DNA of 15,118 bases from Synergistaceae bacterium (GCA_031280635.1 JAITGK010000150.1:1-15118); one strand, 5' to 3'; shown: positions 421 to 15,118, counted from the stretch's first letter. Notes: a model not told the origin generated them from the letters alone. Program-made: numbers and translations.

Positions 421-514
421 TATAGTGGCTTGCGTAATCACGGCGCGGAAATCAGAGACCAAAAACCGGACATAAATAGCAAAAACTTTGCGAAGAAAAG
501 AGCCAACCGCTATA
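421..514 (+). repeat. Intergenic repeat element, type I copy A (~95 bp), directly 3' of the Crp-family gene
   Basis: About 90% identical to 2085..2180 and to the reverse complement of 10981..11078. Starts tatagtggcttgcgtaatcacggcgcggaaatcagagacc and ends aaaagagccaaccgctata. Confidence 0.85.
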
Positions 515-521
515 ATCACGA

Positions 522-1184
522 TTATCGCGCATCATTGAAAAGTTCAAAGTGACTACGCTGATAGCGCAAGAGTCCTTCGTCTTTCATTCTCGACAACTCG
601 GCGGACATAGCGCTCCTGTCCACCGACAGGTAGTCCGCCAGTTCCTGACGGTTAAACGGTATGTCGAAAGCGTTTCCTCCTGTTAGTTTCGCCCGCTCGG
701 ATAAGTACGACAGCAATTTCTCCCGAGTAGTGCGCTGGGTAACGTGCTCCAGCTTCCGCGTTAGCATAACATTCTTTTCCGCCAATATTCGTGTCAGATT
801 GTAGATCAGCGCCGTATGGAAGTCGCGGAACGACGGACAAGCCGTGAGTATACGCTTGCAGTTCATCAGCAGGATTTCAGCTTCCTCAACGGTCGCTACA
901 CTGACCGGCAAATTCTTGACTCCCGCGCAGGCGAAGGCCTCCCCAAACAACCCACCAGATTCAACACGAGCCAAAATCGACCGGTTCCCCCAAAAATCCT
1001 CGCGCAGCACATGAATCGCTCCAGAAAGCACAATACCTACCGAATCGGCTTTATCCCCCGCCCTGAATATGAAGCCATTCTTCTCGAAACGCTTCTGAAC
1101 GGCGGACAGACAACCCAGTAGCCTCCGCAAATCAGCCTCCCCGATCCCGGCGAACAAAGGGCAAGTTCCCAAAGTCGAATCCAT
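522..1184 (-). CDS. Crp/Fnr-family transcriptional regulator (N-terminal cNMP-binding-like domain, C-terminal HTH)
   Basis: The 220-aa ORF has the family-typical layout: a beta-roll effector domain (GDKADSVGIVLSGAIHVLREDFWGNRSIL..GGLFGE) followed by a C-terminal HTH (TREKLLSYLSE...FDIPFNRQELADYLSVDRSAMSAELSRMKDEGLL). AGGAGGT lies 5 nt upstream of the ATG. Confidence 0.85.
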   Translation of the reverse strand: MDSTLGTCPLFAGIGEADLRRLLGCLSAVQKRFEKNGFIFRAGDKADSVGIVLSGAIHVLREDFWGNRSILARVESGGLFGEAFACAGVKNLPVSVATVEEAEILLMNCKRILTACPSFRDFHTALIYNLTRILAEKNVMLTRKLEHVTQRTTREKLLSYLSERAKLTGGNAFDIPFNRQELADYLSVDRSAMSAELSRMKDEGLLRYQRSHFELFNDAR

Positions 1185-1270: not shown

Positions 1271-2026
1271 ATGATACGAAAAATCATCAAGATTGACGAA
1301 GATAAGTGCGATGGGTGCGGACTGTGCGCCACCGCCTGCCACGAGTCCGCAATAGGCGTAGTGAACGGCAAAGCGAAACTCTTGAGGGACGATTACTGCG
1401 ACGGGCTGGGAAACTGCCTTCCCGCCTGCCCCACGAGAGCTATTTTTTTCGAGGAACGGGAAGCCGCGGAGTACGACGAGGAAGCTGTGAAGAAAAATAT
1501 CAAGGAAAAGAAAAAGACGGCGGCGAAAGGTGGCTGTCCCGGTTCCAACGCCCATACTATTCAGCGAGAAACTTCCCAGGCGTCAGGTAAAATGGCGATT
1601 ACCAGCCGCCTGAATCAATGGCCGATACAGATCAGGCTCGTGCCAATCAACGCGCCGTATTTTGAGAACGCGAACCTGTTGGTATCGGCGGACTGCTGCG
1701 CTTATGCCCAAGGCAATTTTCACGAGGAGTTCATGCGTAACAAGATCACTCTCATTGGTTGCTCCAAGCTGGACAATGTGGATTACAGCGAGAAATTGAC
1801 GGAGATCATCGCGCGCAACAACATCAAATCCGTTACAGTGGTAAGAATGGAAGTCCCCTGTTGCGGGGGCATCGAAAATGCCGCGAAGACCGCGCTTAAG
1901 AATTCCGGCAAGAGTCTCGGAGCCAAGATGATTCCCTGGCGAGTGATCACTCTGTCTACCGGTGGTGAGGTGTTGGAAGACTTTCATAGCGGATTGCGTA
2001 ATTGTGAACACCAAAATAGCGTGTAA
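1271..2026 (+). CDS. Iron-sulfur protein: N-terminal 2x[4Fe-4S] ferredoxin domain fused to a Cys-rich C-terminal domain resembling the MvhD/FlpD hydrogenase delta-subunit family
   Basis: CDGCGLCATAC and CDGLGNCLPACP cluster motifs occur at residues 13-55, followed by a Lys/Glu-rich linker. The C-terminal ~150 aa carry ADCCAY, GCSKLD and VPCCGG motifs that follow the MvhD pattern (hydrophobic-CxxCsY ... mCSgR ... C-C). AGGGAGG lies 8 nt upstream of the ATG. The last ~15 codons come from a repeat element (see 1980..2068). Confidence 0.75.
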   Translation: MIRKIIKIDEDKCDGCGLCATACHESAIGVVNGKAKLLRDDYCDGLGNCLPACPTRAIFFEEREAAEYDEEAVKKNIKEKKKTAAKGGCPGSNAHTIQRETSQASGKMAITSRLNQWPIQIRLVPINAPYFENANLLVSADCCAYAQGNFHEEFMRNKITLIGCSKLDNVDYSEKLTEIIARNNIKSVTVVRMEVPCCGGIENAAKTALKNSGKSLGAKMIPWRVITLSTGGEVLEDFHSGLRNCEHQNSV

Positions 2027-2068
2027 AAAGCAGCTACCGCAAAAGTTTTGTTCATAAAAGAGCCAATG
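1980..2068 (+). repeat. Intergenic repeat element, type II variant (~88 bp), overlapping the 3' end of the ferredoxin CDS
   Basis: Begins catagcggattgcgtaat and ends aaaagagccaatggcccc. The middle (agcgtgtaaaaag...cgcaaaagtttt) matches the 14469..14556 copy. Its termini match those of the type I copies. Confidence 0.6.
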
Positions 2069-2084
2069 GCCCCAGGGTGTGTTT

Positions 2085-2180
2085 TATAGTGGATTGCGTA
2101 ATCACGGCGCGGAAATCAGAGACCAAAAACCTGATATAAACACGGCAAAAACTTTGCGCGGAAAAGAGCCAACGGCTCTA
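2085..2180 (+). repeat. Intergenic repeat element, type I copy B (~96 bp), interrupted/abutted at its 3' end by the IS
   Basis: tatagtggattgcgtaatcacggcgcggaaatcagagaccaaaaacctgatataaacacggcaaaaactttgcgcggaaaagagccaacggctcta. Contains the internal direct repeat GCGCGGAAAtcAGAG / GCGCGGAAAagAGCC and a terminal hairpin AGAGCC-aac-GGCTCT. Confidence 0.85.
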
Positions 2181-2190
2181 GATACTGTCG

Positions 2191-2676
2191 TCACGAGACG
2201 CCGACCCAGAGAGCGACGCGTCTGATACGCGCGGCGGCTAGAAACAATGAGGTGTTTTTCGCGTACCTTGTGGCAATCCCTCGCCAGCGTTTTAAATATA
2301 AAAAAGCGTTTTCAACCAGATGCCTGAGTTTATATAAATATTCGTCATACCGCCGAGGCTCCTTACGCTTCCTCTTCGGCGGTATAACTACCCACATACC
2401 GGCTTCTTTCGCTTCGTTGATAATTCCGCCTCTATCATAAGCGCGATCCGCTATAAGATTTTCAGCGTCTATGCCGCCAATCAGAGCCGCGGCCTGAGCG
2501 CGGTCAGCTCCGGTACCTTCTGTAATATGCATTCTGACTGGCATACCATGCGCGTCCACGGCCGAATGTATCTTTGTGTTGAGCCCCCTTTTGTAACGCT
2601 CATATCCTGATTCCCTCCTCTCGCTCCCGTCGCGTGAGGGTGAACCTTGACGCGCGAGGCGTCTATCATCAGCCAC
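2191..2676 (-). CDS. IS5-family transposase OrfB (DDE catalytic C-terminal part), probably expressed as an OrfAB fusion by a -1 frameshift
   Basis: LNTKIHSAVDAHGMPVRMHITEGTGADRAQAAALIGGIDAENLIADRAYD...LKRWRGIATRYAK is typical IS5-family DDE transposase C-terminus. It overlaps orfA by ~195 nt in the -1 frame. An A4G5 tract on the minus strand (plus coordinates 2584..2592) is the likely slippage site. Confidence 0.75.
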   Translation of the reverse strand: MADDRRLARQGSPSRDGSERRESGYERYKRGLNTKIHSAVDAHGMPVRMHITEGTGADRAQAAALIGGIDAENLIADRAYDRGGIINEAKEAGMWVVIPPKRKRKEPRRYDEYLYKLRHLVENAFLYLKRWRGIATRYAKNTSLFLAAARIRRVALWVGVS

Positions 2677-2954
2677 TCAAAGTCCGGCTCAGTTATCAGC
2701 CGCTCCAGCGGGGACTCCCATATTCCCTTGTCCCTCCATCGGCAATAGCGGCGGCGCTTGGTTTTCCTGCCGCCGTAATCTGGCGGCAGGTCGCGCCAGG
2801 GCGCTCCGGCGCGTAAAATCCAGAATACAGCGTTAATGAACAGTCTGTTATCTCTGACTTTCCCTCCCCATGCGCCCTCCCTGCCGGGAAAGCGCGGCAC
2901 CAGAAGGTTCCAGACTCTGTCTGATATATCGTGGCGGTGACGCGCGTTATCCAT
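2481..2954 (-). CDS. IS5-family transposase OrfA (N-terminal DUF4096-like part)
   Basis: MDNARHRHDISDRVWNLLVPRFPGREGAWGGKVRDNRLFINAVFWILRAGAPWRDLPPDYGG...RWRDKGIW is the conserved N-terminal module of IS5/IS427-group transposases. RBS GGGGGAG lies 6 nt upstream. Confidence 0.8.
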   Translation of the reverse strand: MDNARHRHDISDRVWNLLVPRFPGREGAWGGKVRDNRLFINAVFWILRAGAPWRDLPPDYGGRKTKRRRYCRWRDKGIWESPLERLITEPDFEWLMIDASRVKVHPHATGARGGNQDMSVTKGGSTQRYIRPWTRMVCQSECILQKVPELTALRPRL

Positions 2955-3049
2955 ATATTACTCCCCCTGCGCTGTTGTATTTTATGGAGAGATAATAACA
3001 TGATAAATGTCTCGTGACGACAGTATCTAGGTTTTCAGCAGCGGCACAA

Positions 3050-3604
3050 ATGAGCGACGGGACAGGTAAAGGCGGCGCGCTTCTGGCGCTGGATTGTAGT
3101 TTGAAGCGGACCAACGCCGCCGTTCTCTCGCTTTCGGAAGGCGAATTGTTGGCGGTGAAACGGCTTGACATCGGGCGGCGGCAAGTGGTGGAACTCCCCT
3201 TAGCCATGGAGGGCCTCCTTGCCGAGACGGGGAGGAGCTTCGGAGACTTGGGGCTTGTGGCCGTGACCAACGGCCCCGGCTACTTTACGGGTATCCGCGT
3301 GGGAGTCTCTTACGGGGCAGCGCTGGCCCACGGGTTGGGCCTGAAAATCGCGCCGGCCTTCACACTTCACATGCTGACTTTCCCCTGGCTCTCTCAAGCC
3401 AAGACCGTCCTCGTTTTCGCCGATCCCCCCTATAACCAGGGTTGGGGGAAAACGCTGCCTCACACAAACGACCTGGAAAAAATCCTGAAGCGAGACGGGG
3501 TGCTGGTGATGGAATACTCAGCGCGGGAGGCGCTTGATGTCCCCCCCGGTTTGGGTCGTAACGAACACCTGCGCCTACCGCGAGACGGTCGAATGAAAAA
3601 GTAA
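3050..3604 (+). CDS. tsaB: tRNA threonylcarbamoyladenosine biosynthesis protein TsaB (YeaZ family), short form; start uncertain (in-frame ATG at 3014 lies inside the IS inverted repeat)
   Basis: ALLALDCS...AVLSLSEGELLAVKRLDIGRRQVVELPLAMEGLLAETGRSFGDLGLVAVTNGPGYFTGIRVGVSYGAALAHGLGLKIAPAFTLHMLT matches the YeaZ/TsaB core (ILAIDTS..., GRGPGSFTG[IV]RIG). VLVFADPPYNQGW aligns to the VLAAIDARMGEVYW region. The 184-aa length is at the short end for the family. Confidence 0.6.
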   Translation: MSDGTGKGGALLALDCSLKRTNAAVLSLSEGELLAVKRLDIGRRQVVELPLAMEGLLAETGRSFGDLGLVAVTNGPGYFTGIRVGVSYGAALAHGLGLKIAPAFTLHMLTFPWLSQAKTVLVFADPPYNQGWGKTLPHTNDLEKILKRDGVLVMEYSAREALDVPPGLGRNEHLRLPRDGRMKK

Positions 3605-3795
3605 CCGCAACTTAGTAGGAGGTAATCGCAACCTGAGGGAATTAGGATTGCGTTTAACAATGCAAAGCGTTAGAGAGTGAAAATATAAAGTAGATTTGAA
3701 AAAGTAACCGCCGCTTTGAAAGAGCAAGCGCAATGCTGGAAAAGTCGGAAAAAATCCTATTTTTACTTTTCAGCACTAATTTCTCAACAATTTAG

Positions 3796-3838
3796 ATCGC
3801 CGCGTTGATATACTTCGCGGCGGTTTTATTTTTCTTTT
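3796..3838 (+). terminator. Rho-independent terminator (CGCCGCG-ttgatatactt-CGCGGCG followed by GTTTTATTTTTCTTTT)
   Basis: A 7-bp GC stem with an 11-nt loop is followed by a T-rich tract on the plus strand only. It lies ~190 nt downstream of tsaB. Confidence 0.6.
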
Positions 3839-4061
3839 CCCGGAAAAACGCGTCTCGTTTTGCCTATACGGAAGAAATTTTGGGCACAACAAAGCAAAGC
3901 TTGGCGATTTACCAATTTTTTCGCAAATCTTATCGCAATCCCTCTTTTTAACCTATTCTCGGAACCCATCATTTCCCCAGCCACTACAACTTTACCGCCC
4001 GTTTTGTTTTATGCGCACGGCAATTCCGGCTTCAATATGTGGTTTTAGACAGGAAAAAACG

Positions 4062-4221: not shown

Positions 4222-4289
4222 TGGACTTGTTTATTTCCCAATTTTAACCTTATAGCGGGTTGCGGTAATGCTAGTATCCGCAAATCCCC

Positions 4290-4325: not shown

Positions 4326-6452
4326 ATGTTCAAGGTAAAAGAGGCCAGCACGGGCGACGCGCACAAGGGCATAGCGCGGATGGACGTCGCCGACATGGCG
4401 ATACTGGGCCTGTCCGAGGGGCAGATCGCCGAAATCTCCGGGAAGAAGACCACCGCCGCCCGTGTCCACGCGCTGAACCCGTCCGATGGGGAGAACTCCG
4501 GGAAGCGCTTCCTCCAAATCGACGGACTGATTCGCGAGAACGCCGTTGTCCTGTTGGAGGACACAGTGACGGTTAGGCGCGCGGAACATCATTTCGCTGG
4601 CAGCGTCACTTTACAACCCCTCACCTCCACCGCCCTGACAGACAAGGAGCGCGACGCGCCCTACATCCTGTCGCTGATGGAGGGTATGCCCCTCACAGCA
4701 GGCGACCGGGTACGGCTCAACCTCTTCGGAACGCGCGTCTGCGACTTCCGCGTGACGGAGACCACGCCGGAGGGAGCCGTGGTGGTCAGCAAGGTCACGT
4801 ATCTGAACCTTTTGAAGAACGCCAAGATCGCTCAGCCGAAAAAAATTTCCTACGAGGACATCGGCGGCCTGGGTTCCCAGATACGCCACATCCGCGAGAT
4901 GATCGAGCTGCCTCTGCGCTTCCCTCAGGTGTTTGAGCGACTGGGCATCCAGCCCCCCAAGGGCGTGTTGCTCTATGGCCCCCCTGGTACGGGCAAAACG
5001 GTCATCGCCCGCGCCGTGGCTAACGAGACCGACGCCTGGTTCACCCACATCTCCGGCCCGGAGATCATCGGGAAGTTCTATGGTGAAAGCGAGGAACGTC
5101 TGCGCAACATCTTCGAGGAGGCCCAGTCCCGCGCGCCATCCATCGTATTCATCGACGAGATCGACGCCATTGCCCCCAAACGGGAGGACATGGGTGGGGA
5201 AAAGCAAGTGGAGCGCCGAGTGGTGGCCCAACTCCTGGCCCTGATGGACGGCCTAGAGTCCCGCGGGCAAATTGTGGTCATCGGCGCGACCAACATCCCC
5301 AACTCCCTGGACCCGGCCCTGCGCCGTCCAGGACGCTTCGACCGCGAGATCTCCATTCCCATCCCCGACCGCAAGGGGCGATACGAAATTCTCCAAATTC
5401 ACACGCGGGGAATGCCCCTGGCCCAGGAGTCTGGAGCGGACGCGGTGGACTTGAAGCGAGTGGCCGATCTTTCCCACGGATTTGTGGGCGCGGACCTGGA
5501 GGTCCTGGCCAAGGAAGCGGCCATGGCCTGCGTGCGCGACGTTCTGCCTCACGTAAACCTCCAGACCCAGGAGATACCCTACGAGAAAGTCTCGACTCTG
5601 GAGGTGAGAATGAGCCACTTCATGTCCGCCCTGATGGAAATAGAGCCCTCCGCCATACGCGAGGTTTTTGTGGAGATACCAGACGTGACCTGGAACGACG
5701 TGGGCGGTTTGGACGCCGTCAAGGAAGAGCTCGTCAACGCCGTTCAGTGGCCCTTGCAGAGGCCGGAACTCTTTGAGCGCTACGCCATTCAGCCGCCTAA
5801 GGGGATTTTGCTGCATGGCCCATCGGGCACGGGGAAAACGCTGCTGGCTAAGGCTCTAGCCAAGGAGAGCGGAATCAACTTCATCTCGGTGAAGGGCCCA
5901 TCTCTGATGTCAAAGTACGTAGGCGAGTCGGAGCGGGCCATCCGTGAGGTGTTCCGCACGGCGAAACAGGCGGCCCCGTCGATTCTCTATTTCGACGAGA
6001 TCGAAACCCTGGTTCCCGTGCGGGGGCGTGACGCAGGCGGCGCGGCGGCCTTTACGGAGCGGGTCATCGGGCAGTTCCTGGCGGAGATGAGCGGCATTGA
6101 GGAGCTGACCGGCGTGGTGGTTCTAGCCACCACCAATCGGGTCGATTTGGTAGATCCAGCGCTTCTGACCGCGGGGCGCTTCGATCTGGTGCTAGAGCTT
6201 CCCCTGCCCGACCCGGCCGCGCGGGAGGCAATCTTCGGTATCGAACTGCGCAAAAAACCCCTGGCGTCCGACGTGGACGTGAAGGAACTGGCGCGTCTGA
6301 CCGAGGGACGTAGCGGCGCGGACATCGCCTTCGTCTGCCGCAAGGCTGCCATGCTGGCCCTGCGCGAGCGATTTTCTCAGGACATGGCGGAGTTTCACGT
6401 GGGTCGGGAACACTTCAACGCCGCGCTCTCATTGATCGCGCTCCGACGCTAG
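4326..6452 (+). CDS. Cdc48/VAT-type AAA+ ATPase (CDC48 N-domain plus tandem D1 and D2 AAA modules)
   Basis: The 708-aa product has an N-terminal double-psi-barrel-like region ([36 protein letters not shown]). It has two Walker A sites (GPPGTGKT at D1, GPSGTGKT at D2) and Walker B sites ([17 protein letters not shown]). SRH/arginine-finger regions ([23 protein letters not shown]) are present. Confidence 0.9.
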
Positions 6453-14556: not shown

Positions 14557-15118
14557 AGAAATTATATTTTTTAAAGTGAAAATCCAAAAAATCTATTCTA
14601 TTATAGCAGATCGCGTAAATTTTGAACATATGGCGTTTTTCATAATCATACACAGAAATAAGAGGCTAAAAACCAGACCTCAATGACTATCGGCCAAAAC
14701 CGGTAGGTTAAATAGCTAATAACAACAACTTAAGCGTTTATGAGTGGGATTTCCTGTTGTGATGATACTTAGCTCTCCTCGAAGTAAGCAACCTTTCCAC
14801 AAAACGTCCCGGCCGTATGGGCACGACGGATTTTTCAATCTCAATGGCAATAATATCCAAAGCGCGAAGACGCTCCTCTGTTGAGGTCAACAGGATGCCG
14901 CGAGATGAGCCCGGAGTGTCGCGATAATCTGGTTCAAATTGGCCGCGTACTCGTATTTGTTATCTTTGCCGGCGCGTTTCTTTCGTATGGCCATGTTGGC
15001 TTCGCCTTTAGAGCTCCTAACATAACCCACCTGTTTGGGCCTTCAGGCTATAAAGCAATTTTTATAAATGCAGTATTTCAAAGTAAACTTTATCAAGATA
15101 GCATGGTTATGATAGATA

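Follow-up and report, generated by a model that had tools for sequence, protein, structure and literature searches.

A probable family of small, non-autonomous mobile repeats with conserved ends in a few Synergistaceae lineages

What are the short repeats that recur between the genes of a Synergistaceae contig, and how did they come to be there? The stretch analysed here (hereafter, the window) is a whole 15,118-bp contig (JAITGK010000150.1) of a metagenome-assembled genome (MAG) annotated as Synergistaceae bacterium (GCA_031280635.1), and one such repeat lies at 421-515. An initial annotation had proposed an undescribed dispersed family with conserved termini, resembling transposable elements of the miniature inverted-repeat type (MITEs) or repetitive extragenic palindromes (REPs). 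Our analysis supports this view: there are 14 full copies of 85-100 nt at 14 different, unrelated loci, with no open reading frame (ORF) conserved across them, and at four sites an element present in one genome is missing from relatives or reduced to a fragment there. The copies probably represent an undescribed, lineage-restricted family of small non-autonomous mobile elements that are moved in trans via their two conserved ends.

A composite pattern of the two ends, ATAGYGGN{1,2}YGCGTAAN{50,75}AAAGAGCC, matched the window exactly five times (422-504+, 1986-2064+, 2086-2170+, 10991-11077- and 14470-14546+) and had no match in 200 dinucleotide-preserving shuffles. Searched singly, the 3' motif (up to three mismatches) had five matches in the window against 0.01 expected, and the 5' motif (up to two mismatches) had six against 0.26 expected. 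A profile hidden Markov model (HMM) returned the five full copies with E-values from 4e-22 to 2e-15. These are the five copies already listed in the initial annotation, with boundaries differing by 1-5 nt. Altogether, the window contains the five full copies, one decayed copy that had not been recognised before, and two solo 5' motifs.

All five full copies were found by both the composite pattern and the profile HMM. The copy at 421-515 (plus strand, subfamily A as defined below) lies 6 nt past the stop of a convergent Crp/Fnr-family regulator gene (522-1184, minus strand), and no element follows the orthologous gene in two relatives (L029 and L030; such handles denote loci retrieved for comparison). 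The next copy (1985-2075, plus strand), which starts with CATAGCGG and belongs to the divergent subfamily E, takes the place of the stop codon of a 4Fe-4S (Fer4, ferredoxin-like) protein gene (1271-2026, plus strand) and supplies its last 14 residues, FHSGLRNCEHQNSV. In tandem with it, 9 nt further on and between the Fer4 gene and a tsaB-like gene (3014-3604, plus strand), stands a subfamily A copy (2085-2181, plus strand), which was originally separated from the tsaB-like gene downstream by ~35 nt. An IS5-family insertion sequence (IS; 2178-3030, minus strand, with 22-bp perfect terminal inverted repeats) has used the terminal CTAG of this copy as its target; it sits in the end of the copy and splits the tsaB-like gene from its upstream region. 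This IS encodes DUF4096 and DDE_Tnp_1 in two overlapping ORFs, which suggests a frameshift. Its ends bear no relation to the repeat ends, and for that reason this IS, the only one in reach, was rejected as the family's parent. A 13-nt match to the 5' motif (ATAGCGGATCGCG; 2442-2456, minus strand) within the transposase coding region is most likely a chance match, with ~3 matches expected per window at three mismatches to the 16-mer.

The fourth copy (10980-11078, minus strand, subfamily A, 99 nt) is in the sense orientation within the pyr operon (pyrR 12099-12707, pyrB 11079-12002, pyrC 9665-10963 and pyrF 8778-9668, all on the minus strand), where it begins right after the TAA stop of pyrB and ends 16 nt before the ATG of pyrC. 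The fifth (14469-14557, plus strand, subfamily E) has GCGGCCGC as the palindrome of its 5' unit, and a divergent small ORF (14282-14452, minus strand) starts 16 nt away from its 5' end, near an ankyrin-repeat protein gene (13067-14224, minus strand). The copy is followed by a solo 5' motif with one mismatch (TATAGCAGATCGCGTAAA; 14602-14619, plus strand) and, behind that, by the decayed copy (TATGGCGTTTTTCATAATCA...AAATAGCTAATAA; 14629-14722, plus strand; profile HMM E = 0.0045). The other solo motif (TTATAGCGGGTTGCGGTAAT; 4250-4269, plus strand) contains two mismatches that amount to a 1-nt insertion; it represents either a remnant or a singlet unit and lies ~57 nt upstream of a Cdc48-like AAA ATPase gene (4326-6452, plus strand). 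Both solo motifs had been pointed out initially and are real; the added suggestion that the latter lies in the -35 region of the ATPase gene holds for its position only, as no acceptable -35/-10 pair includes the motif.

Nine more full copies were found at unrelated loci (two each on L010 and L014, and one each on L003, L011, L012, L022 and L051), our counts covering the window contig and the fetched loci and contigs. An exact-pattern scan of 185,579 species-representative genomes gave seven matches, one of which is a real copy (L003, in the Synergistaceae MAG Nc350_bin37), and by scanning JGI metagenome contigs we recovered real copies on L010 (=L016), L011, L012, L014 (=L013) and L022. With a looser search of the retrieved loci we detected the second copy on L014 and, on L010, a second copy and a solo 3' hairpin; a further full copy is on L051, a relative of L010. 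Chance matches within coding sequence of unrelated taxa (Colwellia, Klebsiella, Alistipes, Treponema and others) made up most of what these two scans returned and were discarded. The host of L010 is a member of the Synergistaceae as judged from PurA, and all named hosts are Synergistaceae. They presumably live in insect guts; when a termite-gut origin was examined, the sample identifiers did not turn up in Hervé et al. 2020 or Arora et al. 2022. No full copy was present in ~100 kb from Synergistaceae relatives (L024-L030 and L049). Likewise, no copies were found in viral contigs by the composite, 5'-only or 3'-only patterns, where nine 5'-only matches without continuation into an element were taken as chance, and plasmid and phage BLAST searches gave no match. 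Given copies in few Synergistaceae contigs and none in the relatives or the viral, phage and plasmid collections, the family is real, dispersed and limited to a few Synergistaceae lineages. The copies do not form one duplicated segment, because their flanks are unrelated and more copies lie on other contigs. In the searchable literature we found no paper tying Synergistetes/Synergistota to MITEs or such repeats.

In an alignment of 13-14 copies, conservation was confined to the termini, with ~20 columns at the left (T-TATAGCGGTTTGCGTAATC) and ~24 at the right (ATAAAAGAGCCAACGGCTCTAA), and to a central AAAA. The left end (~20 nt, TATAGCGGTTTGCGTAATC) holds a 3-bp mini-hairpin, GCG-GTT-TGC, and the right end (~24 nt, AAAAGAGCC-AAC-GGCTCTAA) holds a 6-bp hairpin. 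The interior of ~45 nt is variable, with the fixed AAAA run and usually an A/T palindrome that is paired in only 56% of cells. Pairwise identity among copies ranges from 49 to 94%, and at least four subfamilies can be told apart: A (window copies 421, 2085 and 10980, and L022), B (L011 and L012), C (L010a and L014a) and D (L010b, L014b and L051), besides a loose group E (window copies 1985 and 14469, and L003). Near-identical pairs at different loci (421/2085, 91%; L011/L012, 94%; L010a/L014a, 90%) indicate recent copying. Among the window copies first described as "type I", copy 10980 is 76-78% identical to the other two. The pair first described as "type II" (1985 and 14469) is real as well, though its members agree at only 67%.

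The left and right ends form an inverted repeat, though an imperfect one (TTAKAGCSGTTKGC), with 8-11 of 14 positions matching in the better copies (TTATAGCGGTTTGC versus TTAGAGCCGTTGGC in the best, 11/14) and 5-10/14 in the remaining ones; the terminal symmetry is short, and somewhat stronger than the 8/13 reported initially. Each end forms a small palindrome with a GTT/AAC loop. In the right helix, AGAGCC-AAC-GGCTCT, 93% of cells are paired, and subfamily D has U-A in place of G-C through changes on both sides; the left helix, GCG-GTT-TGC, is paired in 100%, its third pair (position 8-12) being G.U nine times, A-U three times and G-C twice. These helix-preserving changes are suggestive of kept pairing, and suggestive only, because they represent few independent events. 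Of the window copies, 2085 and 10980 have the 6-bp hairpin intact, 14469 has it with one mismatch and 1985 in weakened form, and in 421 it is broken; the internal direct repeat ascribed to type I (GCGCGGAAA..AGAG) occurs in 2085 and 10980, and 421 has a degraded form of it. In variant right ends (CCGCTATAA in copy 421, GGCTATA in subfamily D) the hairpin is lost or changed while the match to the left end is kept or raised, up to 11/14 in copy 421.

Comparison with close relatives indicates that the whole unit, TATAG...CT(C/A)TA(A/T), is inserted DNA. The pyrB-pyrC spacer is 115 nt in the window versus 30, 12, 28 and 16 nt in L024, L025, L026 and L028, respectively; PyrC of these four relatives is 73-84% identical to that of the window (MDR2529431.1 at NCBI), and the alignment runs through the pyrB C-terminus and its TAA stop. 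What the window has in addition, between TAA and GGAAGG, is precisely the 99-nt unit TATAGCGGG...GGCTCTAA. The purA neighbourhood is syntenic in L010, L049 and L051, and the PurA proteins of L049 and L051 share 90-91% identity with the L010 protein. Behind the GNAT gene stands a full subfamily C copy in L010, only its first ~27 nt in L051 and only ~14 nt in L049, and in both L051 and L049 the sequence resumes within 1 nt of the element's 3' boundary. The subfamily D copy of L010 (L010b) lies in the end of a small ORF, which it truncates, and L049 has the empty site (..CTGAA|ACAAC..). After the cupin gene, L051 has a full subfamily D copy right behind the TAA stop, L049 a terminator hairpin and L010 a rearranged remnant. 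Four sites (pyrB-pyrC, GNAT, small ORF and cupin) are thus polymorphic for presence and absence. In general, both orientations occur among the insertions, which lie in short spacers between genes or right at gene ends, and some adjoin each other (1985/2085 and 14469/14602-14722). L010 also has an 83-85-aa ORF (3590-3847, minus strand; no Pfam match) bracketed by two inverted copies (span 3508-3975; subfamily D at 3508-3592 and subfamily C at 3881-3975) in a composite-transposon-like layout, and the same ORF occurs in L049 and L051 without the bracketing copies.

The Fer4 gene gives a further comparison. Six homologues end in ..GE(I/V)LED, and the window protein (MDR2529423.1) goes on for the 14 residues that come from copy 1985-2075; all listed homologues cover only 94-95% of the window protein. 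The copy appears to be a mobile repeat that has supplied a new C-terminus and stop codon to a ferredoxin-like protein. Sequences resembling the 5' tip occur right after the stop of the Fer4 orthologue in L029 (8785-8810, TTAGCGGGCTTGTAAAA) and L030 (5325-5350, TTTTGTAGCGCC), both without an element; they could be remnants, singlet units or a preferred target.

A check of the flanks for 2-bp duplications, as advised in the initial annotation, did not find them. Outside the conserved terminal TA, no direct repeat of 2, 3 or more nt was seen by eye in the flanks of 13-14 copies, and comparison with the empty sites for pyrB-pyrC, L010b and L051 revealed none either, apart from an ambiguity of 1-3 nt. 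At pyrB-pyrC the sole ambiguity is the TAA common to the stop codon and the element end, and at L010b there is no TA under either plausible alignment, the junction ambiguity being 1 nt. From this small sample of three reasonably clean sites, we conclude that insertion likely makes no target duplication.

How would such an element move? A transposase encoded elsewhere in the genome would recognise both ends and move the element between them. We tentatively lean towards an HUH (histidine-hydrophobic-histidine) single-strand transposase, similar to those of IS200/IS605 or to the REP-associated tyrosine transposases (RAYTs), over a cut-and-paste enzyme of the DDE (aspartate-aspartate-glutamate) type, because there is no duplication, both ends have hairpins with preserved pairing, and solo end units exist.

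The closest mechanistic analogues would be doublets of REPs (REPINs) and the miniature elements derived from IS200/IS605. Like REPs and REPINs, the elements are short, extragenic and lineage-restricted, combine two inverted units ~60 nt apart into a doublet of ~100 nt, also occur as solo units and lack target-site duplications; each unit may likewise consist of a short conserved 5' motif (here TAKAG) ahead of a small palindrome. The REP-like units are TTAG-AGCC-GTT-GGCT on the right (6 bp, 93% paired) and TATAG-CG-GTT-TG-C on the left (3 bp, 100% including G.U). However, their palindromes are weaker than those of typical REPs, the two units are only ~75% alike, and the inverted doublet does not form a single long end-to-end hairpin as in REPINs. 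With the non-autonomous IS200/IS605 derivatives (palindrome-associated transposable elements), they have in common subterminal hairpins at both ends, the lack of duplication, insertion right after a short sequence (three sites after ..AA) and deletions anchored at one exact end. In those elements, both hairpins point the same way on one strand and the left end is flanked by a fixed target of 4-5 nt; here, one end is the inverse of the other, and a preference for T is all that the 5' flanks have in common. Other bacterial MITEs (RUP, ERIC, Nezha, Chunjie and MITEAba12) are likewise small, non-coding and dispersed with inverted ends, form clustered or nested insertions and affect neighbouring genes, but their targets are duplicated and their ends, in the known cases, correspond to those of a resident IS; neither feature was found here. 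By size and dispersal (<~300 bp, non-coding, multiple copies) and by presence/absence polymorphism the family agrees with MITEs; a target-site duplication was not seen. It is best read as a member of the broad MITE/REPIN class, a new example of a very common kind of element and not a new kind of system.

The Correia repeats (CREE/NEMIS) of Neisseria deserve separate mention. They are of similar size (69-157 bp versus 85-100 bp here), occupy intergenic sites and sites 5' of genes, and occur as solo ends, partial copies and insertions into coding ends, as here. A resemblance of the 5' tip was checked against published repeats and real copies (L031-L039), the 101-107-bp copies having been taken from prophage contigs. 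Variants of the Correia repeat start with tatagtggattaa... (PMC5039591), and the terminus TATAG[T/C]GG[A/T]TT is common to both families, at 11 of 11 nt in copy 2085 (2085-2095) and 9 of 11 in the family consensus. Further inward the agreement ends: against the Correia repeat TATAGTGGATTAA(CAAAAA/ATTTAAA).. only the first 9-11 nt agree (17/28 in the best copy and 12-14/28 in most), and local alignments of the interiors with eight real Correia copies scored at the null level. Correia elements have near-perfect inverted repeats of 24-26 bp, a reported target-site duplication and an unknown transposase (PMC2649163, PMC2229807), with 5'-TA-3' at their termini and a 105-bp mobile unit within a 107-bp repeat (PMC2229807, PMC2649163). 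In contrast, the inverted repeat here matches at 11/14 at most, no duplication was seen, the interiors are unrelated and the host belongs to another phylum. We rejected the family as a Correia element, because it has neither the long inverted repeat nor the duplication, and its core is unrelated. The shared tip may serve as a lead and is not proof of kinship. It is a long shot that the tip is no coincidence, and that this family and the Correia repeats are cut by related members of one transposase family. If so, the Correia enzyme could be found by co-occurrence of genes and repeats across Synergistaceae and Neisseriaceae genomes, and such elements might prove to move by a single-strand (HUH-like) route.

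In Correia repeats the duplicated dinucleotide is probably TA. The family could instead consist of classical MITEs of the DDE type, like Tc1/IS630 or Correia. On that view, the TA at each end would be the duplicated target, TAGCGG...GGCTC would be the part that moves, and the inverted repeats would be bound by a DDE transposase. TA does stand at both extremities of every copy (usually as T-TA...TA-A), the ends are inverted repeats of up to 11/14, the size class equals the 105-107-bp Correia form, and the 5' terminus of copy 2085 (TATAGTGGATT) is identical over 11 nt to the Correia repeat, for which target duplication is reported (PMC5039591, PMC2649163, PMC2229807). Nevertheless, the empty site of L010b contains no TA in either plausible alignment, the TA model needs three extra nt in the ancestral pyrB-pyrC spacer, and no copy has a matching direct repeat outside the TA. 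As the inverted repeat is also far shorter and poorer than the 24-26 bp of Correia and the interiors align with Correia at null level only, we regard a DDE-type MITE as unlikely. A module of quite another kind would be one that the host selects for a function in cis (a protein site, an mRNA-stabilising or processing hairpin, or a terminator or promoter cassette) and whose mobility is incidental. This would suit the conserved ends with drifting interiors, the 5' ends of six copies within 50 nt of a divergent gene start, and the solo 5' motifs behind stop codons in relatives. On the reverse strand, the right end resembles a weak terminator (AGAGCC-GTT-GGCTCT followed by TTTT), and this strand lies behind a gene stop in L011, L012, L022 and copy 421; the right end of copy 421 also creates TTGCGA-17-TATAAT. 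Neither is general: the promoter and terminator scan picked only the variant right end of copy 421 and no element hairpin, and by hand inspection no -35/-10 pair is conserved across copies, so that a promoter or terminator cassette was rejected as the general function. Orientation relative to genes is mixed, with both orientations within operons. The copies at pyrB-pyrC, Fer4-tsaB and L010a are in sense orientation and have co-directional neighbours, those at L003 and L014a are also sense but have convergent neighbours, and L011, L012 and L022 have antisense copies. Orthologous sites lack the element in relatives with 73-91% protein identity, and copies disrupt or extend coding ends, all of which makes a host-selected cis module improbable.

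For the same window the possibility of a multi-copy small-RNA gene family or a structured cis-regulatory RNA was considered, the initial annotation having offered a dispersed small-RNA or regulator-binding module as an option. The two kept small helices, one compensatory change in the 3' helix and the intergenic positions are compatible with RNA function. However, Rfam cmscan of the whole window at E <= 1 reported nothing on any copy, and the RNAalifold consensus has only two tiny terminal helices (-6.3 kcal/mol, 9 pairs). Folds of single copies on both strands differ between subfamilies and strands and are mostly within the range of shuffled sequences (z-scores -0.4 to -3.7). The sense strand has no promoter and terminator, and the interior, where a targeting function would sit, is the least conserved part. 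The small-RNA or riboswitch reading was rejected on the two terminal mini-helices and the inconsistent folds, and an RNA family is very improbable; a regulator-binding module fares no better, with no conserved overall fold, both orientations relative to genes and no consistent promoter. Given no Rfam match, a weak fold, mixed orientation and no general promoter or terminator, any effect on expression is a by-product of insertion. Finally, integron attC-type or other site-specific recombination sites, which separate gene cassettes, are also imperfect inverted structures of 60-140 bp between genes with conserved ends and a variable centre. The termini here (TATAGCGG.../...GGCTCTAA) do not contain the RYYYAAC and GTTRRRY core sites, the flanking genes are core housekeeping genes in conserved operons (pyrB/pyrC and the purA neighbourhood) and not cassettes, orientations are mixed, and no integrase gene is nearby in the window or the fetched loci. 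With core sites absent and the context wrong, the attC reading is effectively refuted.

Several observations weigh against a family of mobile elements moved in trans, which nonetheless remains our preferred reading. Neither an autonomous partner nor a cognate transposase was found within the material scanned (large collections and fetched loci), and the called genes of the ~150 kb of fetched loci include no Y1_Tnp gene. Whole copies do not have the long hairpin typical of MITEs and REPINs, and their structures are inconsistent. The inverted repeat is imperfect as well as short, just three pairs (one of them G.T) make up the 5' hairpin, and the covariation of the hairpins traces to one or two evolutionary events. 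The 5'-motif-like sequences at the "empty" Fer4 sites of L029 and L030 mean that some solo motifs could be other than remnants. At the pyrB site, a duplication of TAA or TA would also fit the junction, and two other sites are not perfectly clean, with 18 nt or 2 nt replaced.

The genes around the elements are ordinary, and the neighbours of all 14 full copies are housekeeping genes; the window has no tRNA or tmRNA genes. Upstream of pyrR, an RNA resembling a PyrR-binding site or attenuator (12666-12778, minus strand; 50.5 bits against Rfam RF00515, whose gathering score is 54) terminates in a strong terminator hairpin. An SPFH/Band-7 gene (7623-8768+) lies on the opposite strand between pyrF and a phosphoribosyltransferase gene (6463-7038, minus strand), in the region 7040-8777, and these two genes are directly adjacent in relatives L024-L026. 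A 456-aa minus-strand ORF overlapping the SPFH/Band-7 gene has no Pfam match and is probably spurious, and a 25-nt inverted repeat is found at 7092-7176, between the phosphoribosyltransferase gene and pyrF. Two perfect tandem arrays were also detected. One (TGTGGCCC x14.8, at 1-118) reaches the contig end and is probably the reason why the assembly ends there. The other, a heptamer array (CCTGGCT x13.3, at 14310-14402), lies within the small ORF at 14282-14452 (minus strand), translates to EPGARSQ, is ~90 nt upstream of the ankyrin-repeat gene and is a candidate slipped-strand, phase-variable tract.

Small interspersed mobile repeats are, to our knowledge, close to universal in bacteria, and another such family is therefore unsurprising. 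What this one explains is a set of oddities of the contig: the foreign 14-residue tail of the ferredoxin-like protein, the abnormally long pyrB-pyrC spacer with 99 nt added within a polycistronic operon, the copies inserted beside each other in tandem, and the copy that became a landing site for an IS5-family element. It is also a caution for annotators of these Synergistaceae MAGs, as such repeats break assemblies and create spurious gene ends. The family combines several features, namely asymmetric, hairpin-bearing inverted ends, no target duplication, sharply distinct subfamilies and a tip identical to that of a Correia repeat. Once complete genomes of the host lineage exist, it would offer a comparative handle on how duplication-free miniature elements are mobilised.

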